Below, one piece after another: positions 1,715 to 25,176 of a stretch of DNA of 64,000 bases; positions within the stretch are counted from its first letter, which is position 1; each line of letters starts with the position of its first letter. Under the pieces are notes generated by a model that was not told where the DNA came from, did no database searches, and saw only the letters and a list, made by a program, of their open reading frames with translations. A program made the position numbers and the translations under genes. The DNA lies in contig JAVECL010000035.1 in assembly GCA_051942245.1 (NCBI GenBank), positions 1-64,000 on the forward strand, in the 5' to 3' direction. This DNA comes from Trypethelium eluteriae (lineage: Eukaryota).

Positions 1715-4700
1715 TCAGCCCTCAGCCCGCCCAAGGACTTCCTGATATCTCGATATCTCTAGGTAGTAAGACAGAACCCTTCTCGTGTATGCATGGTCCG
1801 GTCCATACCAGGCTTGGCTTCCTTCCATCGCTCTGGAATAAAAGCTACTGGCTTTCTCTATTCGTTCTTGGCCTTGACTCACCATACCAAGGCCAAGCAA
1901 GCAATCAAGAACTTCGGGGTGATTCTCAACGTAGACCGTCTGGGCTTTTTCTAGGAATTCAGCATACATTTTTTCGGCATTCTCAAGACGTGAAGACTTC
2001 TGTGAATCAGCGTTTCTGAATTTTGTGATGCATTTCTCTGCCTCATTATAACGCTTCTCATGAAGTAAAGAGTGTCCTAATGTGAAAACAATATTTTGTA
2101 TAATGAACATGCCTGTGGTCTGTCCATATTCCAGAGCTTGCTGTAAAATCTCAATAGATTGTTCATATCGTTCTGATTTTTCGTATATTCGCCCCAGGTG
2201 AAGTTGTAATTGTGGCAGCTGGAGAGAGTTTGCATGGCCCTCCCTCAATGTCTTCGCAAGGAGGATCTCAGCCTCTGTGAAGTTTCCTCTCGTTATTAAA
2301 ATACAACCAAGTCGAAGGTCGTATTCGATGCAAAGCATATGTTCTGGTCCCAGTTTGTCGGTGATTTCTCCGCTGCAACGGCGCAGAAGGTCTTCCGCTT
2401 CCATCATCTGCCCTCTATTTGATAGGGCGACAGCTAGCTGGAGGAAGGCACCCATCTTCATGTCGTAAAGCTCTTCGTGCTGCCCACATGTACTGATCAC
2501 GTTTTCAAAGATTTTAATTGATTCCCCCACACGTCCTTCATGGAGAAGTGTTCTCCCCAAACCCATAGATATAGTCGTCATCAAAGGGTGAGTTTGCGAG
2601 AGCCGGGATAATGAAAATTCAAGAGCTTGGCGATAAGATGTCTCTGCAAATTCGCCATCTCTCATCTCATTCGTGAACGCTAAATTGAACATTGCCTTAC
2701 AGAGTTTTACATCGTCTATTCCTGGTAAAGCTTCATAACCCTTCATGGTGCGTCTTAAGTACACCTCGGCAAGTCTGGGTAGATCAGTCCGAATGTAAAG
2801 CATTGCCATTTCGTGGACAGAATCCAAAGTGTCGGAGTTCGAGAATCCAAACTCCTGCTCTTCGAAAGCAAGGACTTGCAAGCGTAGGCTTTTTGCCTTC
2901 TCTAATTGATTTCTCGAGGCATAGAAATTGCTGAATTGAATAGCCGCAGCTCGCAAACTCCATTTCCCCAGCAAATGTGGCGAATCTTTCAGAAATGCTC
3001 GATCATTGCCTAGGCACGCGTCCAAGTGAATATTGACTTCACGGGCAATTTGAAGAGGTAACGGAAGGGCATGATTTGACAGGCAAGAAGCCATGATACG
3101 GATGCTTTCCAATGTGAAAGCTTGACGCTGGCCCGTGGTTAGTCTCAGCTTCATCCATTCACTAATCACAGGATGCAAAGTGACCTCGCATGGGTACGCA
3201 GATCGAAGACTCTACAGCAGGGAAAGTCTGAGCAGCTTGGAAACAACATCACGGTATTGGTATTGATCCCAGTGACTGTCTGATTCGACAACTCTCATCC
3301 ACTCCGGGCGCTGATCAATCGTTGCCTGGAAATGCGCTTCAAAAATGGCTTCAGATATTTTCCCATGATTAAAGAATGCGAAGAGGGTAAATAAATGTAT
3401 GATGTGCTTCTTTTCATCTTCATCCTTACCGATTTGTTGAACAGACAGTTCCCACGTTGTGAAGACACTCAGAGACGTCTCAAGCTCGGTCCCATCGAGC
3501 TTTCTTTTGTACTCCCACTGGTCGGGAATATGTTTTAGCACTGACTCTTTGCAGATCTCAAATTCATCTACGAACGCGTTCACTGGAATGCTTTGTCGGT
3601 CCATATATGCTGCTGCTTGGTCGATCGCCAGCGGAAGATACCCAAGCGCTTTAACGATTGTCTTTGCACTTTCAGCTGATTCGTCATGACGTCCTTGGGA
3701 AAACTGGCTGAGAAGAACATTCACTGCATCCTGTTCAGTCATTTCAGTCACCTGCAGTACTTCTGTGGCAAGTCTCTTGGTATCACCATGCCGGCTAGTG
3801 ATGAGGATTGCTCCATTGTCCGAGTTTGGAAAAAATGATCTAATGTCTGGATGAGCCGCAGGGTCGTCGTAATTGTCGAAGACCATGAGCCATTGAGCCT
3901 TCCAGACTTTCTCAATAGCATGTATTATGATGCGGCAAGCAGCTGCAGTATCCCTGAAAGCACGTGCGCGGCCGGAGATTTGTTCAGCAATGCTTTCAAA
4001 GCTATGAGCAAGCGTTGCATCCGATGTCGCATCTATCCATAGAATCTTTTCGAACCGGTTGTTAGTTGAAAGAAGCCGACAACTCCGAAGAGCCAATTGT
4101 GTCTTCCCCTGACCTCCCATACCAAGTAAGACAACTACCCGTGGTCCGATCGTGGATTTTTCTGCAGCGACTGCTTCTTTAATCTTTTTTAAGAGATCTC
4201 TTCTGCCTACAAAGTGAGTGATTTGGGTTGGAGGCATGTGAAAATAGGTCCCGATAGTAGCAATTTGAGAAGACGGGTCTGCAGGCCGATCCATAACTGC
4301 ATCTGCATGGTAGAGCGTGAGTATGCTCTTGTAACTCTCAAGAAGTCGCTGATATTCGAGGAGTCTCTTCTCATTTGTAATGCTACTAATCGCCTTGTAA
4401 ATGCGTACTCTCTTCCGGTCTCCATCCTCGGGTAATATTCTGTCCAGGAGACCATCTAGTTCTGAGATATGCTCTTTCAACCCCTGAAGAACGGGGATCA
4501 GATTTGCATTAGCATTACCTGTACGAGCGCGATCTAAAAGTTTCTCGCAAATAGGTGTTATCAAAGGTAATTGAACTCTGATTTCGATGAACGTCTTCGG
4601 CACGTTCTTGGCTGTGTCGACATAGTTGTTTACCCGCTTGGCGACCTTCACCGCCAATTCCACCAAACCTAAAATAGCATCAGTAGCTTCTACAGCAGCA

Positions 4701-4726
4701 AGAGCGGTCTCTGCCATATTGCTCAT
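1715..4726 (-). pseudogene. Fungal NLR-like protein: SesA/HeLo-like N-terminal domain + NB-ARC + TPR repeats, with one in-frame TAG at 3212-3214
   Basis: P-loop GMGGQGKT, Walker B WLMVFDNYDD, ILITSR and GYLPLAIDQAAAY. The C-terminal part has kinesin-light-chain-type TPRs (GPEHM, HPEVL, GPDHAYT). ORFs 3212-4726 and 1715-3178 are in the same frame, separated only by TAG and 11 open codons (SLRSAYPCEVT-LHPV). Confidence 0.85.
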
Positions 4727-5366
4727 TCAGTTTGTCGCAAGCGTGCGTAGCTGTTAGGAAAAACAGGGTTAAGAGCGAAAAATCCATTATAAGAGTTTGG
4801 TGTCAGTAAGAAGTGCCCCACACGATAGGGTGATGGAGAGGTTTAACTACAAGATCGCATCGCCAGTCAGGGGTGGCACTTAGGTACCTTAGGTAAGGAA
4901 CGTAAGCGGGGCATGCGGGGCTAAAGTTCTTAAGTACGAAGCTTAGCTACAGACGGGAATAATTAGCGGTCCCTCTCTTCTCACTCTACCTTTCACGCTT
5001 CTCGCCCCCATTGCTTTGGCGCAAGGATCCAAGTGTGTGCCCATTGGCGAAATCGACCCCACCGTCACCAATCTTACCACCGACCGAAATTTCGACGCGC
5101 GAATTCTTTAAGTCCCTGAATTTCGCACCAGTGTTGACGTCTTTTATTGACCAAACCGACCTTCTTATCAAAAATGTGATTGCAAATTTCCTCCCTCGGA
5201 TTGATTATTACAAGTTAGACATCGGGGTGAGTAGAGAGGTTGTTAGGGAAAGGCTAATCAGCAAGGAGACGGGTAGTGGATGTAATACGATTGGAGAGGA
5301 TCAGGAGGCAGTGACATATGGTCGGTGCTGATGTAAGAATGGAAGTAAGCAAGAAGATTGTTCATG
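4573..5366. repeat. Left copy of a diverged direct repeat (5' end of the NLR + intergenic DNA + 3' end of an unknown gene)
   Basis: Aligns by eye with 23988-24892. Examples: gaactctgatttcgatgaacgtc vs gaactctgacttcgatgaatgtc; aaacctaaaatagcat in both; gcgaaatcgaccccaccgtcacc vs gcgaaatcgacctcaccgtcacc; agaatggaagtaagcaagaaga vs agaatggaagtgagcaagaaga. Confidence 0.92.
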
Positions 5367-6296
5367 GATGCGTTAATTGGTATCAGTGGTTCGACTCTGT
5401 CATATATCATATGTGCGACAACGGATTGGTCCTCGACAAACGTAGTATTCGGCCGCATCACGGCGCCGGCGAAAATTGACAAGAAATTTTATGGATAGAT
5501 GACACCATGACGGCCGATAATATCGTGACAACCTTGAGGAATGCGCAGAAGGTCGTCATTGTTGTAGGCTACGGTGTGGCGGTTGCGAAAGCGAAGTACC
5601 CGATTGCGGAGTTTGTGGCTGGGCTGGGGGTCGATGTGAAATTCGCGATCCATCCGGTTGCAATTTCTTGCTTGCGAAGGCCTCAATACCGTACGATATT
5701 GTGCTGGAGATGGATGAGATAAATGAGGAGTGATTGGGGATGTGGATGTCTGATGTTGTAAATTGGGTGGTGAAAGCTTGTAGATTAAGCTATGGAGGCG
5801 AGGATATCTATATACAGGTAGCCAGTTCACAAACCTCACTCCTATTCACGTGATAGGATTGCCAATTTGCTAATAAGATTGCCTTCTCACACATCACATG
5901 CAACATCAATGTCACATAGGTGATTGGTGTGAATGATACTGTGAACCCGATTGCGCTGGAGCCCGGCAGGTGAGTTGCTCGATGTTCTGGGCTTGAGATT
6001 TGAAAAGGCCAACGTTGCTGACTTATTTTCTTCCCAGTCCCATCGCGACTATGCCGATCATCGAAGCCTACAAGAGCAAACAGACCTTCATGACGAAGAA
6101 TGGTTCCAGGACAGAGTACACGGATATTCCCAATCCGCTGTTCTATGCTCCGCCAACTAAGTAACTCAAGTCAGTAAAATTGCATGTGAGTTTGATAATA
6201 TGCTAACGTGGATACCTGGGATGCTGTTCAGCGATGCTAAAGCTGACTGTGATGCAAACAAGACGGCACTTGCTGCTGCTGCTGCGAAAGGTTAAT
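5367..6296 (+). pseudogene. NAD(P) transhydrogenase beta / domain III fragment, degraded
   Basis: Spliced translation gives ALIGISGSTLSYI...VVIVVGYGVAVAKAKYPIAE...VKFAIHPVA, PYDIVLEMDEINE, VIGVNDTVNPIALEPGSPIATMP, PNPLFY and MLFSDAK. The GRMPG motif is deleted, there are stops and frameshifts, and the 5' part of the gene is missing. Confidence 0.88.
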
Positions 6297-6806
6297 GGAG
6301 AAATTATTGGTAGTTATTGTGTTCCCCCCACGTCTTTACATGCTGCGGAGGCAGCGAGTTTGGCGTGAGCATGAGTGTAAAGATACTTCTACCTGGAACA
6401 TTTAATCCGTTGTCGTCATCCATGGTGATGCAGCTCACCCTTGAACCTTGCGATGCTTGACTTGTATTCTATCTGTTCGCGAATAGGGTGAGCTCCAGAC
6501 GAGCTCTCGGGTTCTAGCGGTGCCTGACTGCGAGCTAAGAATTGATCTTGTCATTTACGTTTAAGTAATTTATCGGTGCTCTTAGATCAAGGTCCCAGAG
6601 TCAGTGACGTCATTTCGATAATTTTGTGCCTTCCGCAACGTGAACGCCTCTGCTCGTGCGAATTCGTCGGTCGCTCCACGCCTACGAGAATCTGGTGAAG
6701 TATACGGTTTCGTACGGAAGGATATTTTGCAAAATCTAGAAGCACGTCGAAGCTAAGGATCGCGGGGCGGAGAAATTTCATGAGCTCTTAGAAAAACTCT
6801 CCCGTC

Positions 6807-9800
6807 TTAAGTAGTGTTGTCCCAAGCCTCCTGTCTGTACAAACTCCTCCCAGCAGCTAAAACTCCAAGTGACTTGAAAGTGATCTCGCCCAATAGATCA
6901 AAAATCGCGATATCCGCATTGAGTTTCTTGCCGAACCAATTCCTCAACTCGACAGCTACAAGAGAATCCACGCCATACTGATACAATGGTGTGTCGACAT
7001 CCATATCTTCCATTGCAATCGCGATGGAGGCAGAGAGCTTCTTCATCAGCGCTTCAGTCACAATTGCGCCAGCTTCTCCTAGAGATTTGGCATTTGAAAA
7101 TAAAGATGCGAAGTCTGTGAGCATCTCGTCGCCTCCCGCAGCTGCTCCTGTGCCTGCAACTTGGAATAGATGATTCAGTGTGGGCTGAAACATCCAGGGC
7201 GCCGGATCCAGGCCTTTGGCACCTAAGTTAACTGGGAGCTCAATACCGACTGCGAGTTGGCATTGAGATTCGCTGAGTAATTGCAGCTGTGGGTTGCAGA
7301 AATGGTCCAACAGAGCATGTAATTGTTTTGATAGGATTGGTATCAGCGTACCCGGAGCTTTCATTTTTGCCATAAGGTCAGCGTTTTCTGCAAGTAACCC
7401 TTCTTCATCCATGATGCCAAGATCAAGCGAGACAGCCTTTTCGCCGTTGCGAACCCGAAAAGAGGCCAGCGCATCCATATACGAGCTTCCAGCGGCGTAG
7501 TTAGCAGTTGTCTCTTTTCCGACAACTCCGCAAAGGGAAGAAAGGAGGACGAAGAATTCCATCCTTTTGGGTAGAAGTTTGTGGAGGTTCCAGGAACCGT
7601 CAACCTTGGGATCGATACAAGCCTTCCAATTGTCATACGTCATCTGATTGAATATACCGTCCTGCAAGTTGTTAGACTAGCACGTGTAGTATTAGAGAGT
7701 CCGACATACCCTCAGCACCGCAGTCGCCTGAATACAGCCACGGAAAGGCGGCATCTTTCTGCTGCAATCTGTTAAAGTGGCGTCCAGTGCCACTGCGTCG
7801 GAGACATCGCAGGGTGGTGCTTCAACTTGAGCACCAAGTGCGGTCATCTCTGCCCTGAATGCCGCGTGTTTATCTTGGAATCCAGATCGCGAGAGTAGAA
7901 GGAGATGCTTTGCGCCCCTCTCAGCCATCCATCGTGAGATGCTCCGGCCCAACCCGCCGAGTCCTCCTCCGATCACATAAGTTGCGTTTCCATCGAACAA
8001 GAAACTTGGGGTGGTGTTGATAGTAGCCTGATTTCGTGTCAGCACCAATCATTTGACACCGTGAAAGGACTCATACCCGGATGCGGTCCTGCTTGCGAAG
8101 CTCGATAACGATCTTCCCGATATTCTTACCGCTTTGCATGTATCGGAAGGCCTGCTCGATTTCACGAGTACTATACACCTGAAGCGGCTGTGCAGGCCTA
8201 TAAGTGCTCTGCTTCGTGTGCTCAAAGATATTTTTCATCATTGATTGAACATGCTGCGGCCTAGACGCACCCATAAGAGCCATGTCAACAGCACTGAATG
8301 TAACATTCTTAGCAAATTGATACATGGGAAGTCTCGCGTGTTCTTGAATGTCCCGTTTCCCCAGCTCGATAAAACGGCCATGCGGCGCTATGCATTCCCA
8401 GGACGCAACAAGCGCTTCCCCTGACAATGAATTTAGAACCACGTCAACACCATGGTTCTGGGTCATTCTCTTCACCGCCTTCGCAAAACCGAGATCCCTA
8501 CTATAGAATATTCGATCTTCCTCGATATTGTACGTGTCCATCAGAAGCCGTCTCTTGTCGTCCGTGGAAACAGTGGCGTAAATTGTCGCTCCAATCTGTT
8601 GAGCGATCTCGACTGCAGCCTGGCCTGTTCCACCTGCTGCTGAATGGATTAAAATCGATTCTCCCCGACGCATCCGAGCAATCTCATGTAGAGCATGATA
8701 TGCAGTCGTAAAAGTTGTGGGCATTGAGGCTGCCTCCGCGAAAGATAGGCTTTCCGGTATCAATGCCGCACAAAGGTAGGGGCATCTTGCAAAGGTCCTG
8801 AATATGTCCGGAAACGTTGCAGCAACTCGATCGCCTACCTTGAACATAGCAGAAGCTTGCTCACCAACCCTCGTTATTATCCCAGCGCACTCGGAGCCCA
8901 TAGTCGTCCTCCCATCAAGCCTTCCCAAAGCGATGAGAAGATCCATGAAATTGAGACCCAAGGCACGAACCTCAATTTCAATCTCATTTGTCTGCAACGG
9001 AGTCAAATAAGCCTCATCTTCGTAGAATTGAAGCGAATCTAGAAGACCAGGAGACTCGATTCCAAGGTATAGTGGTGGTCCCTCTGCAAACTCCTGCATC
9101 TTTCTCTGCTTCCTAGCCGCCTGGCGCTCAATGATGTGGTCGAAGGCACGCGCTTCGACAAGCCTATTGGAATGTAGAACACCTGCTCTGATACGGAATT
9201 CGGGCTCATAAGTATCACCAATTGAAAGAGACATGATCATGTTGACTATCTGTGATAGACAATCGTATGATCGAGATTCCCCGACTTCTAGTTGGAGTGT
9301 GACTAGTATCTGCTGGGGATTTTCGGTCCTCAGAACCCGAGCAAGTCCATCAACAATGCCCAAACTCGCAGATCCCACAGACCCGGAAGCTTGCGTCACC
9401 CAGAGCGTCCTCGCACCTGATGTTAGGAGTTTTCTTAATGCCATGAAATCGTCTGGACCGGGCTGTAGTAAAATATTCGAGTCGATCTCTAACATAATGA
9501 TATTTAGGACCTGATCATGCAGTGGTTCACGGGCCGCCTCTTTCAGTGATGTTATAATGCGGCCCGTGCCACCTACATGATTGATGTGATCCTGAATCTG
9601 TTTCGCCAAGCCTTGCTGATTCTCATCATCTGGCAAGGCCAGGACCCTTGCGTCCGAAACGACGGGAGGATCGAATGTAGTTTCTTCAGCTGCGGTGAAG
9701 ATCATTATGCTAGTCTCCTGGCACCACATGTCCCTATAGTCGTCCAGAACCAGCTCTACCTCGTGGAAGCCATTGTTCATTGCGATTTCATTCCAGCGCT

Positions 9801-12800
9801 GCTTCGAAACAGTCGGGCTCCAATGCCTCTCAGATTCCGTTGCTCCCAACCACCAACCAGGGAGCAGACCAAATATGAACCCGCATCCGAGCTGATCAGG
9901 TTGCGTCACTTCAAGTAGGATGAGTTTGCCACGAGGTTTCAAAAGCTTGCGAACATTGCTCAAAGTGGTTTCGAGATCCCTAGTTGCATGCAGCACACTT
10001 GCCGCAACCACTAAATCGTAGGTTTCTTCCTTGAATCCCTGGCTAACGGGGTTCTCTTCGATATTCAGCGCGTTGTATCTGATCTTTCCATTCAAGTCCA
10101 AGAACGTGGCTTGTGCATCTGCGAAGAATGAGCGAGAAAGGTCCGTGAAATCGTATTGTCCTAACAAAGTAGTACGGTCTTCTTCCATAAATCCAAGGGA
10201 TCGCAATATATGGGCAGTCATTCCACCGGTACCAGCTCCTACCTCGAGAATCTTCATTCCCGGGTTTTTGTGCGCAAGCAAGTCGAGATATTTGGTGAGA
10301 GGGTCTCGGTAACGTGCGCTGTCGGCAATGTCTCTATAGTAATCCTTTGCCAGGTCACCACTGAAGAGCAGCCCAAGAGGATCCATGTCTCCTTCTAAGA
10401 TCTGATCTAAGTTCCGACCGACTTCAACGTAGAACTTTCCTTGCATACATTCTTCTTCAACCCTGCGTCTGACCCTGTTCATACGCGCGTCGTCATGCAA
10501 AGCCAAGGCCCAATGAGGGTCAACTGTTGGCAAATTGCCCTTATTGAATTCATCGAGTTTGTGCCTGGTCCATGCAACGTACTTTTGGATGTGGATAGGA
10601 TAGTTGTCTAGGCATTTCTCTTCCATTTTTTGAGCAATCTTAGCAATGCAGCCAAGAACGAAGAGTCGAACATCCTTCCAGAATGAAACAGGTTCCGGTG
10701 ATTTAGGATAGGCGCTTGCACAGTAGTCCAGTAGCTGAGACTTCTCTAGAAGGTCAACGTCTGGTTTCCAGTCAACGACATAGCATAACCGTAGGTCTTC
10801 ATTAGCTGATTGGGGTCCAGTAGAGTCGTCCGCCACGATCGAAGCTTGTAGGCCTTCGGCGATGAGACGCGTCTCTTCGGTCCTGGCATCAACCCCGAGG
10901 ACATGTGCGTTCCTACGAGACCCGTGACCATCAGTTTGAGCGTATACTGGTAATGAAGTCCGCTCAGGAGAACTGAGGCAATCGGCTGAAACCCATAACT
11001 TGTACAAACGTGTTGGTATCATGGTCGGCATCCGTTCGGCGCCGCCTTTGGAAAAAGCTGCGAAAGCAAGCTGGAAAATACCGTCGAGCGACGTAGGGTG
11101 GATGACGTGAGACTGAGGGTAGTTTGAACTTTCTTCAGGTACCCAGGTATAAAGAGTCAGCTCTCCGGAAGCTTCTCCGTCGTCATTATAGGACGCCTCA
11201 CGGAGTCTCTGAAAACATGGGCCATAATCCAAACCGCAACCTTGCAAACACCTGTACAGCTGCTTCAAGTCGACCTTTTGATCGCATCTTCTGACACCAG
11301 CAGCATATTGTACTTTATGAATTGATGTCTGCTTGGTGACTTCATCCTCGATTTGGTTGCCGTCATCGCCATCTTTGTATTCGACTCTTACGTAGCCGCG
11401 GCAGACGTCGGTCCATTCACCATTAGTCAAGGCGTAAAGATGGAATTCAGACCAGGGGCTGCTTGAAGATGATTGAAGTGAAAATTGAGTATCGACCCCA
11501 TCGCCGATCGGTGGGATCGAAAGGGCTGTTGAGAAGACAACTTCTTTCAAGCTGAACCCGGTGATTATAGAATTGATACTTGCTGTTTGCTTTACTGCCT
11601 CAATCGCCATCACTAACATGCCAGCCGCAGGATAGAGAATCGTGCCGGAGATCTGCTTCCTACTTAGCTACATTTTCTATAGCTTTGGGGAATACAAACC
11701 TGATGGTCTTCGACCCACGGGAGTTCAGAAATCCGAATAGTGTGACGCCACCTGGCTTGGTACGGATTCCAATCTGGAACTGGAGTGCCGAGGAGATCCA
11801 AGCGCGGCATATTTCTGAACCGAAAGGCTTTGCTGAGGCGACTTTCCGACCAGTAAGCTTTCGAATGGTCGAATGGATATTGAGGAAGGTCGACGAGCAT
11901 AGGCGGCGAGCGCTTTGTCGTTATTGCTGACCTATTCAATGATTCAACATCGACTGGATAACCTGCACAGCTCAGACGACCAGCTGCATCCAGAATGGTG
12001 TCCGTCGCCGATTTAAACCGGCTTATGGTCGGAATGTACTGGATTGAGCTTTTCTGCGGCAACTGATTCAGAATTTCTCTGATAGGCCCCTGTAAAACGG
12101 AATGGGGTCCTATCTCGAGCAGATGGTCGATTTTCAAGGTGCAGCGATGGCTGAGATCCAGCTTCTTCTTGATCGTCTTACCGGATTCCCCACAGACGAG
12201 ACCCAAAGCTTCCGAGAATTTAACTTGGGAAAGCATGTTTCGAAGCCAATAGCTGGGTTCACGAAGATCTTCTTGGGTTGCAGTCTTGCCAGTTACGCTC
12301 GAGACCATCATCGCAGGTGCAACAGCTGGAAAATGACTGTCTGCTTCCAAACGCCCAATTTCGTCGAGGTAAGACGCTGCGATCACGGTCATGTGCTCTG
12401 AATGATATGCCACCTGAACCTTGAGTTTGCGGGAGAATATGTCATGATCGTCAAGCATCGTTTTCAATGCGTCAATTTGCTCCTCATTACCGCTGATCGT
12501 CAGATTGTTCGGACTATTGACACAACCAACGCACAGTGCTAGATAACCGAATCGAATCACCAGCTGGTCGAAATACACGTCAGTATCTTCTACGCGGAGT
12601 GCAACCGAAAGCATCGCGCCACATCTGCTGCTGGGTTCGGATACCAATGTCGATGCAAGCGAGCCTCGAAAGTAGGCAAGCTTCCAGGCTGATTCGCGTG
12701 ACAGAGCGCCAGTGGAGTAGCTATTGGTATGTTATCATGGCGCCGCACACCTAAACTACTTGTCCACTTACGCTGCAGCAATTTCTCCGGATGAATGTCC

Positions 12801-15082
12801 TACCACCACCGTGGGATGGATGGAAATGCTTCGGAGAAAATCGACGATTGCGACTTGAAGGGCCGTGCACAAGGGCTGCGAGAGGTATGGCAAGTCGACC
12901 TGGGAAAGCTCTCCAGGCCTGAGTAGTTCATCTGACGGAAATAAGCTCTTTCCCTATGTTCTTGAAAGACTTAGACATACCAATCAGGTTCCAATGAGAT
13001 CCAAGGTTCTGGAAGTAAGTCTCCGCATTCAGAAGACTGTTTCTGAACATTGGAAATGCCATGAGTTCCCGGCCCATTCCAGCCCATTGAGCACCTTGGC
13101 CGGTGAAGACAAACCCAAGTTGTGGGTTGGTGAGCGGTTTGATGCCTTTGGACATCACTTGTGGCAGATCGCACAATCTAGTAAGAGAGTCCGCTACTAA
13201 GTAAGACCTCCAAGCGAATTTGCTCCGTCTTCTGGCCAAGGTATAAGCTAAAGATCGCATATACGATTCAATATCTTCTGTGAAGTTGCTAGCAAGGTTG
13301 GTAAAATACTTCTGATAGCTTTCACCGAGCCTCTCGATCCCCTGCTCATCTGCTGCAGAGAATATGAGAAGTCTGGATCTTTGAAGGCCTACAGGCTCTC
13401 CCATATACAGTGGGTCCTTGTCTAGATTGCGCGTTGGCACAAGCGAATGTGGCTTGTCAATCGTGCAGTGATTTCCAAGGCGGCCTTCGGCTGCAAGATA
13501 ATGGTATGCGTCGTCAATGACGACGTGGGAATTCGTGCCACCAAAGCCAAAAGAGTTCACTGATGCACGTCGTAAGCCATCCTGTGGCCAAAGCATAGCC
13601 TCTGTCGGAAACTTGCGCGGAGTCAGAAATGAGCAGTCTATAGCAGGATACCACTCACCTTCAGAAAGAGGTGTTCTGCATCGATCTTTGGATTCAAGGT
13701 CTCGAAGTTAGCATTCGGTGGTATCGTCCCCTTTTCTAAGACTAGAATGGTTTTAATCAGTCCTGCAACACCACTCGCGCCTTCTAGGTGACCGATATTT
13801 GATTTCAAAGCGCCGCTGTCTATCGGTCAGCTAGCATCTGCGACAAACCTCCACTGTGTCACGAACATGATCATAGGTTCAGCAAGAGACCGACAGCCTC
13901 TGAACGCTGTGCCAATAGCGCCTGCCTCAATCGGGTCGCCGATTGCCGTGCCAGTCCCTAGGGAGATTAGAATGCCGTGTGTCCAGTAGTCGTTAATGGG
14001 TTACTTGCCATGCGATTCAAAGAATCTCGTGAGGCTCATGTCGAGACCGGCTTTCCCATAAGTTTCTTTGATCAAATTTATCTGTGCTTCCTTGCTGGGT
14101 TGAGTGATGCCTGGGGTACGTCCATCCTGATTGGTGCCAGTGGAACGAACGACTGCTCTGATTGTGTCGCCGTCTGCGAGTGCCGCTTCAAGAGGCTTGA
14201 CAATGATGATCCCAAAACCCTCACCACGAGCATACCCATTCGCACGATGGTCGAAGCTATAGCTTCGGCTATCTTTGGACAGAAAGCTCATATTCGATAG
14301 TGTCGATAGCGTATCGATGCTATATAATAAGTTACAACCGCCTACGATGCCCTGGATCATAGTAAGTCCCAAAATCCTGATGACGAGTACCTAATACTTA
14401 CTAGAGTAGAGTCTCCACTCCACAAGCTTTGACAGGCTAGATCGAATGCCATCATACTACTCGAACATGCGGAGTCAAGATTGACGCTTGGGCCAGTAAG
14501 ATTAAAAAACCAGCTAAGACGATTTGCAAGCATGGATGCAGCGACTCCGGTTGCTGCATACCTGGGCGGTGCTTGAGGATCCTTGCAAAGAAGATTTTGA
14601 TAATCATTCGTGAAACATCCAGTGTGCACAGATGTCTTAGACCCTACGATAGATTCCAATGGCATACCCGCGTTCTCGAGGGCATGAAAAGTGGCTTCTA
14701 GCAACCCGCGCTGCATCGGTTCCATATCGGCAGCCTCTGCAGGTGTTATGGAGAAGAAAGGTGCGTCAAAGGCTGCGATATCCTCATTGATGAAGTGGCC
14801 GCCTCGGAACGGGATGCTATCTTTTCTGTTTATATCAGGGTTGTAGAATGAGTCGAGCTTCATTCTGTCTTCTGGGAAGTCCTTTGATGCACATTGCCGT
14901 CCCATCAACATTGACCAGAAGTTGTCACTTGAAGATGCGTCTCCTGGAAATTTGAGAGAAAAGCCGACGACTGCGAGTGGGGGGTAACATTTGCCTGTTT
15001 CTGCACTCAAGGGGGCTCCATCCAGAACGTGGTTGGCATCGTCATGATCGGATACATCGTCAATGATGAAATGAGGCGCCAT
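6807..15082 (-). CDS. Highly reducing iterative type I polyketide synthase (KS-AT-DH-cMT-ER-KR-ACP), multi-exon
   Basis: [69 protein letters not shown]. c[67 protein letters not shown]. Short GT-AG introns join the ORF pieces in frame where I checked (AT, DH, KR). Start ATG at 15082 (MAPHF). Confidence 0.97.
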
Positions 15083-16011
15083 TGCTTGTTGAGGAGAACG
15101 AAAGAGGTCCTTCGTTGACACTTTCTGATCAAAAGGTATCAAGTGAAACGAACATAAGGGTTACTTGTCTCAGCATCAAGCTAGTACCGAGAGACGAAGA
15201 AACGATCTGGAGTGCTCGTCATAGCGGAGGCCGTAATCAGTGAAGTGACGGCAAAGGCAAGTCCATCTCGCTAGTCATGCTGCCTTCCGATGTTGTTTCC
15301 CTGAAGATCGGAGCGGGAATAAGCCAGCAGATATGAGTGAAAGGTGACTACACTGTAGCCAAACAGGCAAATGCTTCCCTAGCTCGTCCATGGTGGCCAG
15401 AAAGTTGCTTTGTAGACTTTCGATATCTGGAAGTATCGTGGGACTCGGCAAATCGTGCCTAATTGTGATTGACTTGCATGACACGAGACTAGTAAATGCA
15501 GAGCGTGTGTCCCGTCCTCGTTGAGCGGACAGATTCAAGATGAGGTGAAGCTGGAAAAGTGGAGACAAGGGAGCTGAGGCAAAGGCAGGGAACCTAACGA
15601 GGTACGGGGCTGATGGCTCGTTCCGTCAGCCGCTCCGCCAGGGAGTTGCTAGCTCAGCCTACCCTGGCCAAGCTAGCATCGAATGTACACACTCTAATAT
15701 CAGAAGGAGACAATACCGCGCGACTTGCTTTTGTCATGCTCGTTTCTGTTACTGACATGCATGCAAGGCATTTGCATGCTCGTTGCTGGCGGCCCGCCGA
15801 TAGAGTACCTACACCGGGATCGTCTGTAGCCACTCCCTCCCTCCGCGTTGCCTCACGGCACGACACCAGTCTTCGGATTTGAGTTGAGTACATAAGTGGA
15901 CTGGCTGCATATAAAAATGAAACACCTCTGATACCAGTGCGCCAAGCCTCAGAAGCCTAATTCGCCGGTAGGACATTGTAGGCCTCGTCCTCGATAGAGT
16001 ACTCCGGGAAA

Positions 16012-16853
16012 ATGCGTTTCCTGTGCCTCCACGGTTCAGGCACCAATAGCCAGGTAGGTAAAAATACTTTCTGCACTCTTACAGAACGGATGCTAAACGT
16101 CGAACCCGAATTTGACAGATTTTCGAGGCGCAGACAGGTAAAACCCAAGCCGTTTGCTGCGTTCGAGTTGCTCGACAACGTTAATTAGATCATCAGCCGC
16201 CTTACGTTATGAGCTTGGCGACAACCATGTCTACGAATTCGTCGAGGGAACTCTGCCTTGTCCAATGGCACTAGGTATGATCTCAAGACTGTTGGTGGCT
16301 TCAGAGCTAATCGAAAACAGAAGCGAAAGCAATGTTCCCTGCTGATAGTGCTTGCTTCTCATACTATGATCCAAAAAACCCTTCAACTGTTCGGACCGCC
16401 CTCCATCAGCTAGACTCCTACATTGCTGCAGAGGGTCCCTTCGATGCGCTCATGGGTTTCTCACAAGGGGCAGTCCTTGCCGCGATGCACGTTATCCGCG
16501 AATCGGACAACTCAACCAGCTTGAGTACTCTTCCGAGATTCCAATGCGCAGTCTTCATTGCCGGAGCCGACCCTACAAGCTTTGATGAAATTGTGGTCGA
16601 TGGTGTCGAAAAGTTCTATAGCCGAGCTGACAGTCATGCCAAGCACATCACTATCCCCGTAGCACACATCTGGGGTCGCAATGATTGTGATGGTGCGGAC
16701 CAAAGCAGGCAACTGAGTAAGCTGTGTGACACACATTATGACAACACATTCGTGCATGATGGCGGACACGAGGTGCCGGGAACAGGTCCAGGAGTAATGG
16801 GTTCAGTTCGCGTCATTCGTCGAGCTATTGATCAAGCCCTGTTCTCGCAATAA
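16012..16853 (+). CDS. FSH1/DUF341 serine hydrolase (LovG-family trans-acting thioesterase/esterase)
   Basis: Exon 1 MRFLCLHGSGTNSQ; nucleophile motif EGPFDALMGFSQG; HIWGRND; HDGGHEVP. Transcribed divergently from the PKS. Confidence 0.93.
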
Positions 16854-17125
16854 ACACTTGAAAAGTCGCATTCAAACCACTGATCTGGTTCGGGTTCTAG
16901 TTAAGTCAACTGGAAGTGTCTCGTACGTAATTTTCTGTAGTGAGCTATATAGATGAAACCAGTGAAGCTCACTTCGTCATTGGTTACGGGTAACATGATA
17001 AGTGCAAAAGTAGTTTGTATCACAAAGTCGGATCCTATCTGGTGTCTTCAGATTGCTTCACTGGACCTGGCGAAACTATCATAATCTCGGCACAGTTATT
17101 CATCATGATATCACATCATTGAACT

Positions 17126-19066
17126 TCATGATGATCTTCTTTTGATAATTAATAACGTGCAGGCAAACTGCGCTGCCGTAAATCCAATAACAACTTTCAT
17201 CTGTAAGTTGTATGCATCCGCAAATACGCCTCTGACCTCATTCTGAATACTCTTGGGTAAATTGTCGATACTCACTGCGCTTCTCAAGATATCGATGAGC
17301 ATGTTTTTGGAAACCTGCCTTGCTAAATGTGAGCGGATATATGCGTTCATCACACCTGTAACGATTGCAAGACCAACAGCGCCCCCGAGCGCCCGCAACT
17401 GATATACGGCACCCATAGCAACCGCTAGTTGATAGTGAGCTACAACATAGCATTAACCAATTGACCAGTCACTTACATTGATCTCGGAACTCGACATTCA
17501 GAGGTACTAGTAAGAGCAGTGTTGTTATACTGATTCCAAGTCCTACTCCCAGGACGACCTCGTATCCGTATTCTGCGTGGGCTATGCTCAGTCCGCTAGG
17601 TAACACTGATAACAATGTTGCTCCAGTTATCTGTAATGCTGCCGCAAAAAGTAGAATGAAAGCCAATGGGATCTTGGTTTTAGCTAGTAACGACGCAGTA
17701 AATGAGCCAAACGGAGAACTAAAGACTAGAGGAAGGAGGCGAATTCCAGCTTGGAGAGGAGACAGGCCATTGGCCGCTTGAAATCGTTGAGGTATCAGGA
17801 CGATTGATATTGTATACGGTGCACCAGCAAGGAAGGTGTTTCTCTGGTAGTTAGTAAGGGTTTTTCCGACCTTGAAGACAACTTACAATAACATGCCGAC
17901 AAAAGCACGGTTCTTCAGAAACCTTGACGGAAATACAGGTTGTTGTGTTGTCTTGCGTTGGGTTGTATACCATTCCCAGGCAAAGAAAGCAATCCAGAGA
18001 AGGCCAGATATCGTGATGCAGGCGATTACCAAGGCCGAAGACCACGGAAATTCCGTTCCTGCCTCTTCGAAGCCTACTACAGTTAGCACAGAGGCGGCAA
18101 GGAGAAGTAGTACACCAAGATAGTCTATTCTCTGTAGTTTTGAACGCCAGTGTCCTTGTGTCCGGCTGAATCCAGGATGTCCGCCCTGAAAGGGAAATTC
18201 CGCTGGCAGTGCAAGGAGTAAGAGACAACCCGCAATGATGCCTCCGGGGACGCTAGACGGCCAAATTTAGTATACGACCGTCGCTTTTTCTGGGGATTCG
18301 GGACGAACTTGAGGAGAAATACCCATCTCCACGTTGTGTCAGAACTGATGGCCCCTCCAACAACGGGTCCTACAGAATATGAGATAGCAAACACAATGGA
18401 TGCCATGCCGAGGTACTTGGGAAATTTTGGAGGAGGCACCAGTTCAAAACACATGACGGTGGATACCGAAAATGTGCCGGAGCCTCCTATTCCTTGGATG
18501 GCACGGAACACGATACTGAAAGCGTATCAGTAAGCTTCTGGAATCAGACAGGATGACTATACAGTTCCATAATATTTTGCGAGGCTCCACAAGCTCCCGA
18601 AAATACGACGAAGATGAGTATAGCAACACAGAGAACGGTTCTGCGGCCATAGATATCACTGAGCTTGGCCCAGATGATGAAGCATGCTGTTTCGGTTCAG
18701 AGTCCGTACAACGACCTTGGAGACGGTAGCTCACCAGTATAAGCGACTAGATAAGCGGTAATTATCCAATTGCTTCGGCTAAAGCTTCGCAAGTCATTGG
18801 TTATGCCTACCAACGCGGAGCTTACAATGGAAACTTCGAAATTGGCCAGGAAGAGTCCTAGAAACAGGCTGCCAGATACCATCAGTTAAGCTATCATGGA
18901 TTCAGTAAGCTGCTTACGCTGTGGTCGAAATGTGAAGTCTCCATCCTCGTAGATAGTTAAAAGGTACTGGCCTCGGTGGTTCGGGCGCATTTTTCGTGAC
19001 TTCATGAGGCATATTCGCAGTTTGGACTGGCACATTACTCTTTTCCAGAGATTGATTTGCTTCCAT
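17126..19066 (-). CDS. MFS efflux transporter (DHA2 / 14-TMS type), multi-exon
   Basis: YLRGWRLH; LFLGLFLANFEVSIVSSALVGITNDL; WIITAYLVAY; FRAIQGIGGSG; GPVVGGAISSDTTWRWVFL; QLRALGGAVGLAI. Confidence 0.92.
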
Positions 19067-20853
19067 ATTAATGGCGCTATTAGTCTTCTCACGGTGTGAT
19101 ATGAAAAATCTTGAGAACAATGTTCGAAAAGAGAATCACAGTTGGAAGCCAATACTCCTCGCTCGCCAACGCATTCTCATCACAGGGAATCAGCAGGAAT
19201 CCAAGATCAGACTCTCCTGAGCTATAGCCTACAGGCGACGATCACCAATGCAGTCGCCTGGATGACCTGATCGGGATGGCTTGCGGTAATGCAGGTTCTG
19301 CAGACAGCACCAGCCTACCATGGATGTGCGGTCAGCTTGCACTATAGGGCAAGTAAGACCCTACGAAGCGCGTTCGCAAAGTTTCTGCATTTCAGGCTCA
19401 CTGCCCATCTGTGGAAGCATCCAAAGGTAATCCGCAGCGGCAAGACGTTGAACGGGATAGAAAGCGCTATATCTTGCCAAGCAGAAATGATATGATTCTG
19501 CACCTTTGCTGTTGGTGCTTTATCAAGAGCGTTCCGTCCCGTACCCGTTCCGTGTCACACGTTGCATATATCGGTCGATAGCTTTTCGAACCTCCTCGCA
19601 AGCGTGGTAGGGTGCAGGGGTAGTGAGAATGCAAAGACGGACTTTGCGGGAAGACAAGGACCCATGAGATCACCGTGCGAAGCGTGGGGCCCGCTCTTAG
19701 ACTTCGTAAGCGGAAGACAAATTGTTGGTGGCGTTCTAGCAATGCCTGAGATTGGAAGCTAATTGTGGAGCATGACCGTAGGCAGATTGATTGAACTTTG
19801 CTTTCCCTACAGTCGTCTACGCACCTACGATTGCGGCGATAGGGTTCAGGGTCAACGCGGACTCGAGCTGCACCTACCCAGGAAAATTTTGGATACCCAC
19901 TTTATCCCGGATTATGATTTGCATCTGGCAGTCCAACTTCAGCTGAAACGCTTTGACAGGGGTTAGCGACGCGAGCAGAGGCAAAAATGGGACACGATCG
20001 GCATGGAACTTCGCACTATTGGCGCAATCACACCTTTAGATTTGAAAGAATATCTTCACCTCACTGCTGCCTGTATTGCAGGTGGTTGCTATTCTGCGCC
20101 GCAATCATTTACGTGCAAGCACCTGCCTAATCAATGGTGAATCTTCTATGCCTAGATGTGGGACCGCGCCGCACTCTTGCAGGCAATTGCGTATTGACTT
20201 ACGTAGGTATGAATGCAATAAACTGCGCCGCAGGAAGATTGGTCGTCCTCCAATCGGGCCGTTCTCCATCCTCGCAGCACTTCTATCGATTCTCATCAGA
20301 GACAAGCAGGGTAGGATCTCTTGAAGCGCTATTCTTTTTGGGTGCCTCGGCTCCTGTCTTCTACGCAGTCAAACAGGCAGAATATCATGGGACGGACATT
20401 GTTACTCGTTTATGCTCCAAACCAATCTTTACGCAAGATTGAAACGAAAGTTCAGCGGCTGCTCAAGCATGCCGCATGATCAGCTGGATTGCTGCATCTT
20501 GGATTACGGCAGCACCCTATCATGGGTCTTCCTCGGAGACAGTACCCTTCGACACACAGTTTATTACCTGTCCGTTATTCGTCTACCTGCTTTGCAGCCT
20601 GTTCCGTGCCACACCACAAACCTGCGAAGTGAGGTAATGGCCTGTTGCCACGGTGTTGGGAACCTATTGGAGTGCTTTCTCGGTAGATCGCTTAGGCCGA
20701 TGAGACACAACCAATCAACCGACCTGTCGTAATTTGCGTGGCATATAGCTCGGATTGAGAGCTTGCCGCGTTCTTTTCATGGTCAGAAGCTGCGGCTGTA
20801 TTTCCATGGGTCTGCTGTTGCCCTCCGTATAGCATTCCCCGCCTGTCCTCACC

Positions 20854-22115
20854 ATGATTTCTTCTAACTCAACGGCAGCCTTCACGGTAACCATTGTGTT
20901 TGATATACTGGCTGCCGTTGCCGTTGTCATTCGTTTGGTCACAAGAGCTCTTATTAGGGCGAAATATGGCCTCGATGACTGGTTCGTTCTATTCGCGTTG
21001 GTTTGTCTATGGATTTGCGCTGCGATGAATATTTGGGGTAAGCAAGATCAAAATCTGAACTCTCTGGGGATGATATTGAGATGAAACAGGCATGGTTGCT
21101 GGCGGTGGAGCTCAGGATCTAGATCACAATCCAATTCAATACTATGATCAGTTGCAGCTATTCCTCAAGGTACATAAGCCGAAATGAATTGCAGACTCTC
21201 ATTAACATAAGCCATAGTCAACTTTCATCAGCGCACCTTTCTATGTCGCTGTCCTTACTTTTGCAAGGCTTTCGATTACTGCGCTATATCGACGTGTGTT
21301 CGCAATCACCAAATTTACACGAATCAGTTACGTTGTGGATGCTGTCACTATTAGTTGGGGTATCGTCGGCGTCTTCGTAAATGTTTTCGGATGCACGCCT
21401 GTCGACTTTTTTTGGAAACCAAAGAGCAAAGGGTCCTGCATCTCTGGATTCAATACATTCCTGCTAATTCACGAGATCTGGGATATACTTCTAGATGCGA
21501 CCATTCTTTCCATGCCCATTCGGATGGTTATGAAACTGCAAATGGCTTTACGTACAAGGTTGTTGGTGTGCGGAGTCTTTCTTCTGGGAGCCTTGTATGT
21601 CCTGTCTCTTCCTTGCTCTTTCACACACGCATATCGACACGCATGAGCTTTACTGATAGTCAATAGTGTCGTGATAACGAACATTGTTCGACTGATATTC
21701 GTGTACTCTTCTAGCGGAACCTATGGTACGTCACCTTCTCAACGTTAGAACTGGACTTGGGTTAACGATCTCTTGTCAAGTTGACTTTACCGAGTCCGCG
21801 ATTTGGTCAATCATACATGCCAGTACTGCCGTAATTTGTGCTTGCTTACCTACTTATAAGCCCCTGTTCCCCAAGATCGCGTCGTTTTCGCGCAGCGTCC
21901 AAAAGAGATATGGCTACCTCATGGGTACCCGCAGTAGCAGGAAATTAGTGTCTCAAGGCAGCACTGGCCCAAGACCGCAATATATTGAAATGAACGGGAA
22001 GGAGAACAGCAAAGCCACAACGAAACCCCAGACAGCTTCGGATTCAGCGGAGCGCATCATCGATCAGTATTCATTGGACCGCACGGATAGTAGGAAAACC
22101 GCCGAATTTGTGTAG
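20854..22115 (+). CDS. PTH11-like (fungal rhodopsin-domain, no CFEM) integral membrane protein
   Basis: AVVIRLVTR...YGLDDWF; FGCTPVDFFW; DILLDATILSMPIRMVMKLQM; WSIIHASTAVICACLPT. Short introns are present. Confidence 0.9.
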
Positions 22116-22521
22116 GACCCTACATTCACAGTAAATGAAGTCTTTATCTAGTGTAGAGTTCGGATTCGATTTATAGAACTTTTATAGGCGATATCTCATA
22201 TCACTTTGGAAATCCCACTTTAAAGTGTGACTTTAAACATAGATTAAATAGGCTGCCTACAGTTCCGAGTTCCTTCATACCTAGGCTTGCTCTATATCTA
22301 AGACTCGGCAAAGCAATTGGACGGGAATAACGTGCATAAGTCGAAATCGACGAGCAGCCGGGCAGCGTCCGAGCTGTTGGTTCCGTTCATCTGGAGTACT
22401 GGCAGTAGCCCTTTGACTCCGCATTCCACTCCGCACCCTTCATTCTCTTCTCCTTCGACTTGACGACCGCGCTTCTTCCAATCCTTGTCAGATTCTATCA
22501 TAGCTCCGTATTACAAGAAGC

Positions 22522-23890
22522 ATGCCTCTACAAGTAGCTATTGTAGGTTTGGCTTTAGTACCGTGCCTGTTGACGACCGTCGGCTAAAAATTTTCCGCAA
22601 CGCAGGTGGGGGGTTCATCCGCAGGTCTCATGCACGGCGTAATGGCGAAAAGATTGGGCCACGATGTTCATATTTTTGAGCAGTATCCGTCTTCAACCCG
22701 TGAAGGCCAAGCTGCGGGCATCAGTACAGGAGCACATACGCAAAAATTCCTAGAGAGATACGATCTCTGTTCCGAACCTTCCTACGTGAGTGCTTCGACG
22801 CTCCGCGTCCTGGATTACAATTTCGACGAAAAGATTACCAGAAAGATACAATTCAGAATGACCAGCTGGAACACTCTTTATTATCGTCTCAGAGCAAATT
22901 TCGATGGACTAAGCAGTCCCTACGTCTTAGTCCCCCCTAAATCCTTGGAAAGCGACGGGAGAGCAACCTACAACACCGGCAAGCGTGTGACCGACGTTGC
23001 TAGCAACGATGCTCGCGACGGAATTAACGTTAAATTTGAAGACGTGGCGGATGGTAATGGTGGTGTTTTTGAGGCTGACATGGTCATAGCAGCGGATGGT
23101 GCCAACTCTAGCATTCGCCAGCTACTCTTACCTCAGGTACAGCGCCAGTATGCCGGTTACGTCACCTGGCGTGCCACCATTCCAGAATCAAGGTTGTCCC
23201 AAAGCACACTCAACGCTTTTCAGGACGCATCTACTGTATATTATACTAAGACAAGCTACGTTGTTGTGTAAGGACCTGGTTCGATGAGATCCCCAGCCAT
23301 TCTGACAAGTGAGCAGATATAGTATACCGGGAGATAATGGCGACTTGAGGCCAGGCAAGCGCCATGTAAACTTTGTCTGGTACTACAACTGTTCAGCACA
23401 CTCTGAAGAGTTCTCAGACATCATGACCGATATTGATGGTCATTGCCATGTTCGCACCCTGCCGCCAGGAAAGATGAGACCTGAGGTTTGGACTAGGCAG
23501 CGCGCACGCGGCGAGCAAGAACTGGGGTTTCAATTCAAGGAAATCCTCGCAAACATTGACTCTCCCTTCATCACCGCGATTAGCGACTATAGAGTTCCTC
23601 GGGCGTCTTTCTTTGGAGGCAAGGTGGTCTTAGTCGGCGATGCGTTAGCTCTTTTCCGTCCGCACAACGCACAAAGCACTGCGCAAGCAGCCATCGATTG
23701 TACTTTATTGGAGCAAGTCTTGAAAGGAGAAATGGACGTTTCAGACTGGGAACAAGAGGTTTTGCAGTATGCTCATCGCACAGGGCTGGCAAGTAACTGC
23801 ATTGGAGCCTGGTATCTCCGAGGTTATCTCAGTTGGCTGTACTACAAGGTGCGGAGTTGGATTTCTGAGAACACTGGATATTTGGTATGA
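22522..23890 (+). CDS. FAD-dependent monooxygenase (group A, 2,6-dihydroxypyridine 3-monooxygenase-like)
   Basis: Spliced N-terminus MPLQVAI|VGGSSAGLMHG (Rossmann fold); DMVIAADGANSSIR; YAGYVTWR; VVLVGDALALFRPH. Confidence 0.9.
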
Positions 23891-23987
23891 GGATTCAATG
23901 TTGGATGTAGTCTGAAATTGTGAATAGCACTTAGCGAAGGAGCTATCTTCAAGGTCTTCGGAACCTGCCGGCGGTGGAGTCTGTTAA

Positions 23988-24141
23988 GAACTCTGACTTC
24001 GATGAATGTCCTGGGCACAATTTTGGCTGTGTCAACATAGTCGTTCGCCCGCTTGGAGACCTACAGCGCCAATGCTACTAAACCTAAAATAGCATTAGTA
24101 GTTTCTACAGCAGCAAAAGCAGTCTTTGCTATGTTGCTTGT
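23988..24141 (-). pseudogene. Truncated copy of the first ~51 codons of the NLR gene
   Basis: Reads TSNIAKTAFAAVETTNAILGLVALAL*VSKRANDYVDTAKIVPRTFIEVRV versus MSNMAETALAAVEATDAILGLVELAVKVAKRVNNYVDTAKNVPKTFIEIRV. Both ATGs are lost and there is an internal TAG. Confidence 0.9.
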
Positions 24142-24892
24142 TTCATTTGTCATAAGTGCGTGTAACTGCTAGAAAGAATAGAATAGAGAGCGAAAAATCT
24201 ATCAAAGGAGTTTAGTGTCTGCCTCAGATGATAGCGAGAGTAATCTACACACGCTTCAGGATCGCGTCGCCAGGGGTCGGGCACGCGGGGCAAAAGTTCT
24301 TACGAAGCTAAGCTACAGAGTAATTAGGACAAGGTTCGTTTCATCCTAATTACCACCTTCATCTTGCGGTTTCTATCTCTTCTCACCCTCGGGTGGTCCC
24401 TTTCGCGCTTCTTGCCTCTACTACCTAGTACTTTGGCGCAAGCCTCCAAGTCCGTCTATACCTCTATCGGCTATAAGCGGCAAGACACTTTATGACACTA
24501 ACACTTCACCTTACATCGGCAGGACCACCTTCCCTCCTCTAATCGTCTACTTGAATGCCTTAGTCTCCGTTCGCGAAATCGACCTCACCGTCACCGATCC
24601 CGCCGCCAAAGCTAATCTCGACGCGCAAATCCTTCAAATCCCCGAATTTAGCTTCGGTGTCGACGCCCCCATCGACGAACTCGACGTCCCCATCCAAAAC
24701 GTGCCTCCAAAATCCCTCATTTGGGCTAATTGTTACAAGCTTGAGCTTGGAGCGGATGGGGGTATCGCTGAGGTGAGGCCGAATAGCGAAGAGACGGGTG
24801 GTGGACGTAGTACGATCGGAGGAGATCAGTGTGTGGCGACTTAGGGTTGCTGCCGATCCGAGAATGGAAGTGAGCAAGAAGAATTTTTCATT
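23988..24892. repeat. Right copy of the diverged direct repeat
   Basis: Matches 4573-5366 with indels. Over the 51 NLR codons I count 26 mismatches in 153 nt (about 83% identity). Confidence 0.92.
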
Positions 24893-25036
24893 GTGTTCTA
24901 TCAAGCTATCCTGCGATTTAGGCAACAAGAGCGAACGGTATTTAATAGAGCTCGCCACTTCGTCGATCAGGGTCCGTCGCGGTCTTGAGACATTCCTCCT
25001 CCAGGTTGCATTAACATATGGGAAATTCTTGAAATG
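24430..25036 (-). pseudogene. Decayed gene of unknown family
   Basis: Open minus-strand frame (…TLIDEVASSIKYRSLL…GDLKDLRVEISFGGGIGDGEVDFANGD), then several stops. Many differences from the left-copy homologue (KFRDLKNSRVEISVGGKIGDGGVDFANG) are synonymous in this frame. Confidence 0.55.
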
Positions 25037-25176
25037 CTTTTACATTACTTCGGTGCAGACCTTGAGGTGAGCTACGGCTATAGTAACATTCAGTCGATCT
25101 CGTCTGTTAGGTAATTTCAAGGTAAATTGACGAGGGAGCGAGCAGTCCTGGTTCAGCGTTGACGGCAACATTCTCA

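Follow-up and report, generated by a model that had tools for sequence, protein, structure and literature searches.

Introduction

Insertions that are flanked by duplicated target sequence and arise by template switching, of the MMBIR (break-induced replication mediated by microhomology) or fork stalling and template switching (FoSTeS) type, or by the repair of staggered breaks have been described mainly in human and yeast. Campbell-type integration is familiar from bacterial plasmids and integrative and conjugative elements, and, in fungi, from circular transforming DNA that integrates by the type II route. The relocation or entry of fungal biosynthetic gene clusters is mostly explained by transposon-rich flanks, by Starships or by unexplained horizontal transfer. 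Starships encode a DUF3435 'Captain' tyrosine recombinase and are bounded by short repeats (TTAC-type sites or 6 bp) and terminal inverted repeats (TIRs) (PMC10104507, PMC11018114), and the mobile secondary-metabolite clusters of Aspergillus fumigatus travel with 15-43 kb flanks rich in transposable elements (TEs) (Lind et al. 2017, PMC5711037). Here, I describe an 18.6 kb block in the fungus Trypethelium eluteriae that holds a polyketide synthase (PKS) cluster and lies between two diverged direct repeats, each made of the start of a NOD-like receptor (NLR) gene and the DNA upstream of it. The window under analysis is the whole stretch of 64,000 nucleotides from contig JAVECL010000035.1 (GenBank assembly GCA_051942245.1, positions 1 to 64,000 of the forward strand).

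The locus shares features with each of these systems. Like MMBIR/FoSTeS-type insertions, it has a foreign segment between direct repeats of a single-copy target that are each continuous with one flank, no transposase, and breakpoints inside genes; unlike those cases, it has an entire fungal biosynthetic cluster as cargo, the event appears old, microhomology at the junctions is unreadable and no donor copy was seen. Pezizomycotina Starships likewise move blocks of accessory genes, including biosynthetic clusters, to new sites and show direct repeats at their edges, but here the scanned open reading frames (ORFs) contained no DUF3435 domain, the block ends carry neither a TIR nor a short direct repeat beyond chance, and the repeats consist of 0.8-0.9 kb of host gene and promoter. 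The A. fumigatus mobile clusters and genomic-location polymorphisms are matched by a small PKS cluster at a secondary-looking location, yet no TE sequence is detectable around this one and its flanks are duplicated host DNA. Campbell-type integration would also leave direct repeats of a homologous segment around the inserted DNA, but neither an integrase (in the scanned ORFs) nor an att core was found, and the repeats end in illegitimate junctions that lie within genes. A literature search on this locus, or on kilobase-scale target duplications around fungal clusters, returned nothing that matched.

Results

The repeat pair

Self-comparison of the window by blastn revealed one direct and collinear homologous pair, consisting of a left copy (R_L, 4573-5366, 794 bp) and a right copy (R_R, 23988-24892, 905 bp), neither of which is assigned a strand. 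The similarity falls into two long segments, 4573-4804 versus 23988-24219 (79.3% over 232 nt, E 1.4e-53) and 5041-5365 versus 24567-24891 (69.3% over 326 nt, E 7.5e-32), with a small patch of 84% identity in the middle (4909-4953 versus 24279-24319), and a separate repeat search recovered the same pairs. A MAFFT alignment that included the flanks gave three gap-free blocks with 79% (232 nt), 75% (103 nt, block B) and 66% (221 nt, block C) identity, and beyond both repeat borders identity drops to 41-59%. The middle of the repeat is rich in indels, and ~110 nt, roughly 24454-24562, are present in the right copy only. The original prediction had named two homologous segments in the same orientation at these positions and had suggested fixing their borders by self-comparison; the pair is real by blastn, repeat search and MAFFT, and the sharp fall in identity outside sets its ends at these same coordinates. 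The spacing of 18.6 kb was likewise borne out, with 18,621 bp of unique DNA (5367-23987) between the copies. Whole-window blastn and tblastx self-comparison detected neither a third copy nor any further duplication within the 64 kb, and a larger segmental duplication was dismissed on this basis.

The leftmost 154 nt of each copy correspond to the start of the NLR gene and the remainder to the DNA upstream of it (~640-750 bp). In the left copy, NLR codons 1-51 occupy 4573-4726 on the minus strand and are followed by ~640 bp of NLR upstream sequence; the copy reads MSNMAETALAAVEATDAILGLVELAVKVAKRVNNYVDTAKNVPKTFIEIRV and then continues as NLR, so that the start MSNMAETALAAV...FIEIRV runs on into the NLR body. 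The right copy is collinear with the left apart from its ~110 extra nucleotides and reads ..TNETSNIAKTAFAAVETTNAILGLVALAL, followed by a stop and VSKRANDYVDTAKIVPRTFIEVRV, beyond which the sequence is unrelated; homology to the NLR ends exactly after ...FIEVRV, at codon 51. The right copy thus contains a dead 5' fragment of the NLR (23988-24141, minus strand), in which both ATGs of the left copy are lost and an in-frame stop stands at about codon 27. Comparison of the two sequences therefore confirms that each copy holds the first ~51 NLR codons plus intergenic DNA.

The left copy continues into the NLR gene as predicted, although the gene that the prediction called full is interrupted by a stop. 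It spans 1715-4726 on the minus strand, carries SesA, NB-ARC and TPR domains by Pfam, and consists of two abutting ORFs of 504 and 498 codons in the same frame, split by a single in-frame TAG at 3212-3214. The stop sits between the NB-ARC and TPR parts (...KLLRLSLL, stop, SLRSAYPCEVTLHPVISEW...) and leaves no space for an intron. As the 498 codons downstream are still open, the TAG is taken to be a nonsense mutation of recent date, a null allele or an error in sequencing.

The right copy is continuous with DNA that leads to a minus-strand gene, here called gene X, but the claim that the 3' end of this gene lies inside the repeats did not hold. Gene X (25177-26469, minus strand) is a 451-codon ORF of a hypothetical protein family without a Pfam domain; it lies wholly outside the repeat, and its stop at 25177 is 285 bp to the right of the right copy. 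Its relatives number 22 proteins of 273-483 aa, the best being 40% identical, and all 22 align by tblastn only within 26469-25318, so that none reaches the repeat. Inside the repeats at E<10, these relatives gave only two matches, both at chance level: P0021 (E 0.85) aligns with the plus strand at 24615-24806, and P0017 (E 2.8) aligns at 4913-4863. A 159-codon ORF without a methionine overlaps the right part of the right copy (24560-25039, minus strand) and is not supported as coding: it has no Pfam match and 0 matches at E<=0.001 among 1.84 billion representative proteins, and differences in block C are spread flatly over codon positions. A coding 3' end of gene X in the repeat was rejected on these grounds.

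Differences between the copies are in fact even over codon positions in every frame, except in one stretch of 34 codons. In this stretch, block B (5037-5139), 14 of the 26 differences fall on minus-strand third positions and the 21 changed codons include 9 amino-acid changes; the excess is weak and not significant after allowing for the three phases. The part of the repeat upstream of the NLR is treated here as intergenic, with a reservation for a lineage-specific exon.

Junctions of the block

At the left junction, homology to an NAD(P) transhydrogenase of the PntB type begins at 5370, only 4 nt past the end of repeat homology at 5366. Trailing repeat similarity is possible up to ~5376, and the two borders agree within ~4-10 nt. 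At the right junction, the stop codon of an FAD-dependent monooxygenase gene lies 97 nt before the right copy, which starts exactly at NLR codon 51. The left copy is continuous with the NLR body only and the right copy with the DNA toward gene X only, and the repeat ends coincide with the ends of the inserted segment, which at both junctions are points of gene truncation. Both repeat ends are illegitimate junctions inside genes. The structure is most economically read as one insertion whose two ends would have joined the target ~0.8-0.9 kb apart. The position of the pseudogene 4 nt from the end of the left copy and the start of the right copy at codon 51 support the prediction that the cluster entered as a block together with the transhydrogenase fragment.

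Gene content of the block

The left end of the block is occupied by a transhydrogenase pseudogene fragment (5370-6160, plus strand) that covers positions 239-439 of the 456 in the PntB profile. Homologous peptides were located at nt 5370-5468 (profile 239-271), 5504-5662 (288-343), 5650-5730 (347-373) and 6036-6158 (399-439), in frames 2, 1, 0 and 2, with at least two frameshifts that leave no space for an intron. A match in the Protein Data Bank to domain III (dIII) of PntB/NNT (E 6e-10) supports its identity. The fragment is truncated at its 5' end, stands tail-to-tail with the PKS gene and possibly reaches ~6295. It probably marks the former neighbour gene of the cluster.

Cluster genes were assigned from Pfam scans of stop-to-stop ORFs. 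A highly reducing PKS (KS-AT-DH-MT-ER-KR-ACP) occupies 6813-15160 on the minus strand and is collinear by tblastn with three full-length homologs, P0023, P0024 and P0029. The alignment shows five junctions where the frame changes, with gaps or overlaps of 9-59 nt, and an extra stretch of ~100 nt in one aligned segment; the frame changes look like short introns, and the core gene appears intact by its alignment. Decay of the cluster was rejected, since the PKS reads through against these three homologs. To the right of the PKS follow an FSH1-family serine hydrolase (16311-16853, plus strand; a partial model with a likely upstream exon), an MFS/TRI12-type transporter (17469-18526, minus strand; several exon-like ORFs), a membrane protein with a Fung_rhodopsin domain (20833-22115, plus strand) and, at the right end of the block, the FAD-dependent monooxygenase (22588-23890, plus strand; Pfam and ORFs). 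Between the transporter and the membrane protein lie ~2.2 kb (18600-20800) in which both strands carry ORFs of 70-144 aa that match nothing in Pfam; this stretch could be non-coding or could hold a multi-exon gene that escaped recognition, for instance a regulator. The NLR-upstream sequence of the right copy (24142-24219 and leftwards, minus strand) faces the 3' end of the monooxygenase gene.

Divergence of the two copies

Of the 556 positions aligned over the three gap-free blocks, 149 differ between the copies, 110 of them by a transition and 39 by a transversion (a transition to transversion ratio of 2.8). Kimura two-parameter (K2P) distances are 0.20 over the NLR codons and 0.39, 0.32 and 0.49 over the other parts compared, transversions alone reach 4-10%, and the longest run identical between the copies is 16 bp. 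The insertion would therefore be a long-past event, ancient by the K2P distances of 0.2-0.5 between its flanking copies. The original prediction had also held that the cluster could be lost again by recombination between the repeats; with copies that are now 66-79% identical and have no identical stretch above 16 bp, loss by homologous recombination is no longer plausible.

The direction of the differences between strong and weak bases reverses within the repeat. The AT-richer copy is the right one in the NLR-proximal part (27 versus 15) and the left one in the distal part (56 versus 27); this flip is significant (Fisher p = 1.06e-3), as is the bias in block C alone (19 versus 44, p = 0.0022). 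The pattern suggests that each copy decayed where it had been severed from its own neighbour, assuming AT-biased neutral decay.

Repeat-induced point mutation (RIP) was considered as the cause of the divergence. No CpA bias was detected among the 110 transitions (CA 27, CC 22, CG 37, CT 24, against a near-equal background; p ~0.3 in a chi-square calculated by hand). The TpA/ApT ratio is 0.96 and 1.04 in the copies and 0.69 in the window, and the RIP indices taken jointly rank the copies among the top 3.9% and 0.6% of windows of 850 nt, 53 of 1263 of which also pass both thresholds. Classic RIP was not supported as the cause, given the missing CpA bias, the transition to transversion ratio of only 2.8 and the 4-10% transversions; RIP may have contributed to the divergence, a contribution that is neither needed nor shown.

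Search for mobile elements and integration targets

The Pfam scan for mobile-element domains covered 28 ORFs of at least 120 aa within 1-30000, 39 of the 78 block ORFs that reach 70 aa, and, to the right of position 26500, 38 of the 93 that reach 100 aa. The unscanned ORFs are mostly situated inside named genes or antisense to them, and the rest were outside the search. No transposase, integrase, recombinase or DUF3435 domain was found in the scanned ORFs, for which the predicted lack of a transposase or recombinase thus holds. The same ORFs contained no TE domains, and no dispersed repeats were found in the 64 kb window. At the block ends, neither a TIR nor a short direct repeat was detected, the longest inverted or direct match being 7 nt against a null median of 7. 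A transposon or Starship was consequently rejected, there being no captain or transposase in the scanned ORFs and no TIR at the block ends. Searches for tRNA genes returned 0, and Rfam gave a single chance-level match in 1-30000, SNORD33-like at 3791-3859 (E 0.7) and outside the repeats; as an integration target or conserved core, neither a tRNA nor a structured RNA was found.

Composition and relatives

The GC profile is flat across the window and its junctions, and the GC content at third codon positions is 0.40-0.56 in the block genes and 0.45-0.59 in the flanking genes. Foreign base composition was sought and not found; the block has the same composition as its flanks. Among the matches listed of 2098-5000 aa, the PKS has no near relative; the best, at 42% identity, belong to Leotiomycetes, Lecanoromycetes and Eurotiomycetes. 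In a tree built with FastTree only, from the best 60 of 120 listed matches, the PKS stands on an isolated branch with 0.97 support in a polytomy, with no starred sister. Neither this phylogeny nor the base composition is informative on a horizontal origin, and the phylogeny points to no donor.

A gene for a pentatricopeptide repeat (PPR) / complex I assembly-type protein (50003-52594, plus strand) gave a 100% match to a Trypethelium eluteriae record labelled as a metagenome-assembled genome (MAG). Further relatives of this protein are 81% identical in T. subeluteriae, 60% in Bathelium mastoideum and 50% in Bogoriella megaspora, and by protein similarity these matches place the window in a lichen-forming lineage of Dothideomycetes. 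The match lists of the PKS and of gene X contained no T. subeluteriae, Bathelium or Bogoriella proteins; the window's own proteins were also missing from them, so that gaps in annotation make this absence uninformative. The insertion may post-date the split from the congener, which could then hold an empty site, because 19% amino-acid divergence implies a neutral divergence well above the 0.3-0.5 between the repeat copies; this estimate is rough and assumes a typical ratio of nonsynonymous to synonymous substitution rates (dN/dS).

Other genes in the window

To the left of the NLR gene, Pfam identified a fragment of a major facilitator superfamily (MFS) gene (411-1088, minus strand), and to the right of gene X an FTA2 kinetochore gene (26974-27793, plus strand). 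Gene X itself had no 100% self-match in the protein collection and may be unannotated in the source record; two weak matches in its family are named from Onygenales. A second gene with a Fung_rhodopsin membrane domain lies outside the block (29410-30409, minus strand) and showed no significant similarity to the one inside it (20833-22115) by tblastx. Further to the right, a 394-aa ORF (33487-34668, plus strand) encodes a hydrolase domain of the T6SS_Tle1-like (DUF2235) type (E 4.5e-45), the family of fungal homologs to a phospholipase-effector fold of bacteria.

Discussion

I lean, if only slightly, towards an ancient, transposase-independent insertion of the 18.6 kb block into the 5' end of the NLR gene and its upstream region. 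The incoming segment would have comprised the truncated 3' piece of the transhydrogenase gene and a five-gene cluster (highly reducing PKS, FSH1 hydrolase, MFS transporter, membrane protein and FAD monooxygenase), and its ends would have been joined, presumably in a single event, to target positions ~0.8-0.9 kb apart. The interval between the joints, that is NLR codons 1-51 and ~640-750 bp upstream, would thereby have ended up on both sides as a target-site duplication on the kilobase scale. A staggered break with fill-in is one possible route; another would be replication that switches template twice in the MMBIR/FoSTeS manner, copying the donor locus and re-entering the target upstream of the point of exit. 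Later, each copy would have kept the part attached to its neighbour and the rest would have decayed. The narrower proposal that a replication- or repair-based event without a recombinase copied or moved the cluster into the NLR promoter, leaving the kilobase-scale target duplication behind, is possible and is put forward tentatively.

Other histories were weighed against the same observations. The pair may be the relic of two paralogous NLR loci, the right one having lost everything beyond codon 51, with the cluster lying in between for unrelated reasons. In fungi, NLR genes occur in multiple copies and frequently turn into pseudogenes, the retained NLR carries a stop of its own, and 21-34% divergence would suit old paralogs. 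However, the end of the duplicated unit would then have to match the truncation point of the transhydrogenase within ~4-10 nt, no 3' remnant of an NLR is present at either junction, and the faster distal decay of the left copy than of the right is not predicted, which makes such a relic unlikely. It is very unlikely that the cluster was always in place and that ectopic repair or gene conversion later pasted a 0.8 kb copy of the NLR start ~19 kb away. Dispersed duplications of small size are known, but only the existence of two copies speaks for this history, which needs three breakpoints rather than two and does not explain why the transhydrogenase pseudogene starts at the very point where homology of the left copy stops. 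If neutral decay is AT-biased, the flip in AT direction fits a duplicated target better than either a pasted copy or old paralogs.

The original prediction had offered two routes of entry. Duplication-associated insertion is supported, with the block bounded by the repeat; a Campbell-type single crossover of a circle carrying the block and one 0.8 kb copy is decidedly doubtful. Direct repeats that are each continuous with one flank are just the topology expected of it, and the 'dead' halves could be donor-derived, which would also give the compositional flip. Such a circle would nevertheless already need both joints, between the repeat and the transhydrogenase fragment and between the monooxygenase flank and NLR codon 51, and because these novel junctions have to be on the circle beforehand, a Campbell event can propagate the structure but cannot originate it. 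Moreover, no integrase (in the scanned ORFs), no short identical core of the att kind and no tRNA target were found, and the longest identical run today is 16 bp. Finally, a chimeric join at the repeats could have been produced during assembly, given that the record matched at 100% by a protein of the window carries a MAG label; with 149 of 556 positions differing and no more than 16 identical bases in a row, the copies offer too little for k-mer-based misjoining, and base composition is uniform across the junctions, so that an artefact is extremely improbable.

Several points weigh against the block-insertion reading itself. The ancestral state is inferred from this one locus rather than read from an outgroup or an empty site, and no donor locus was seen, for instance an intact transhydrogenase gene adjacent to a PKS paralog; among the matches listed, those of at least 2098 aa share no more than 42% identity with the PKS. 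Divergence limits the resolution of the junctions to about +/-10 nt, so that microhomology cannot be scored. The argument from decay direction assumes AT-biased neutral mutation and uses changes that no outgroup polarises, and the NLR-proximal AT asymmetry is not significant on its own (binomial p 0.09). There is a slight chance of a lineage-specific 3' exon in block B, whose 34 codons show a weak coding-like pattern on the minus strand. In addition, the contig matches a record labelled as metagenome-assembled.

As an old structural scar rather than an active mobile system, the locus is of moderate interest, and the age of the event limits its value. A cluster bounded by a long target duplication, with a truncated housekeeping gene dragged in, reads as the legible scar of an insertion by repair or replication, in which an immune-type NLR locus would have acted as the landing site. 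The transhydrogenase fragment offers a clue to the donor locus, where the cluster would have stood tail-to-tail with that gene. If the tentative mechanism is true, it would have had as a side effect a second copy of the NLR promoter, directed antisense into the monooxygenase gene of the cluster; were the duplicated upstream region in the right copy still active as a promoter, it would make an antisense transcript, which is speculation only. If true, this mechanism would also represent a route of fungal cluster mobility distinct from both Starships and TE-flanked jumping.

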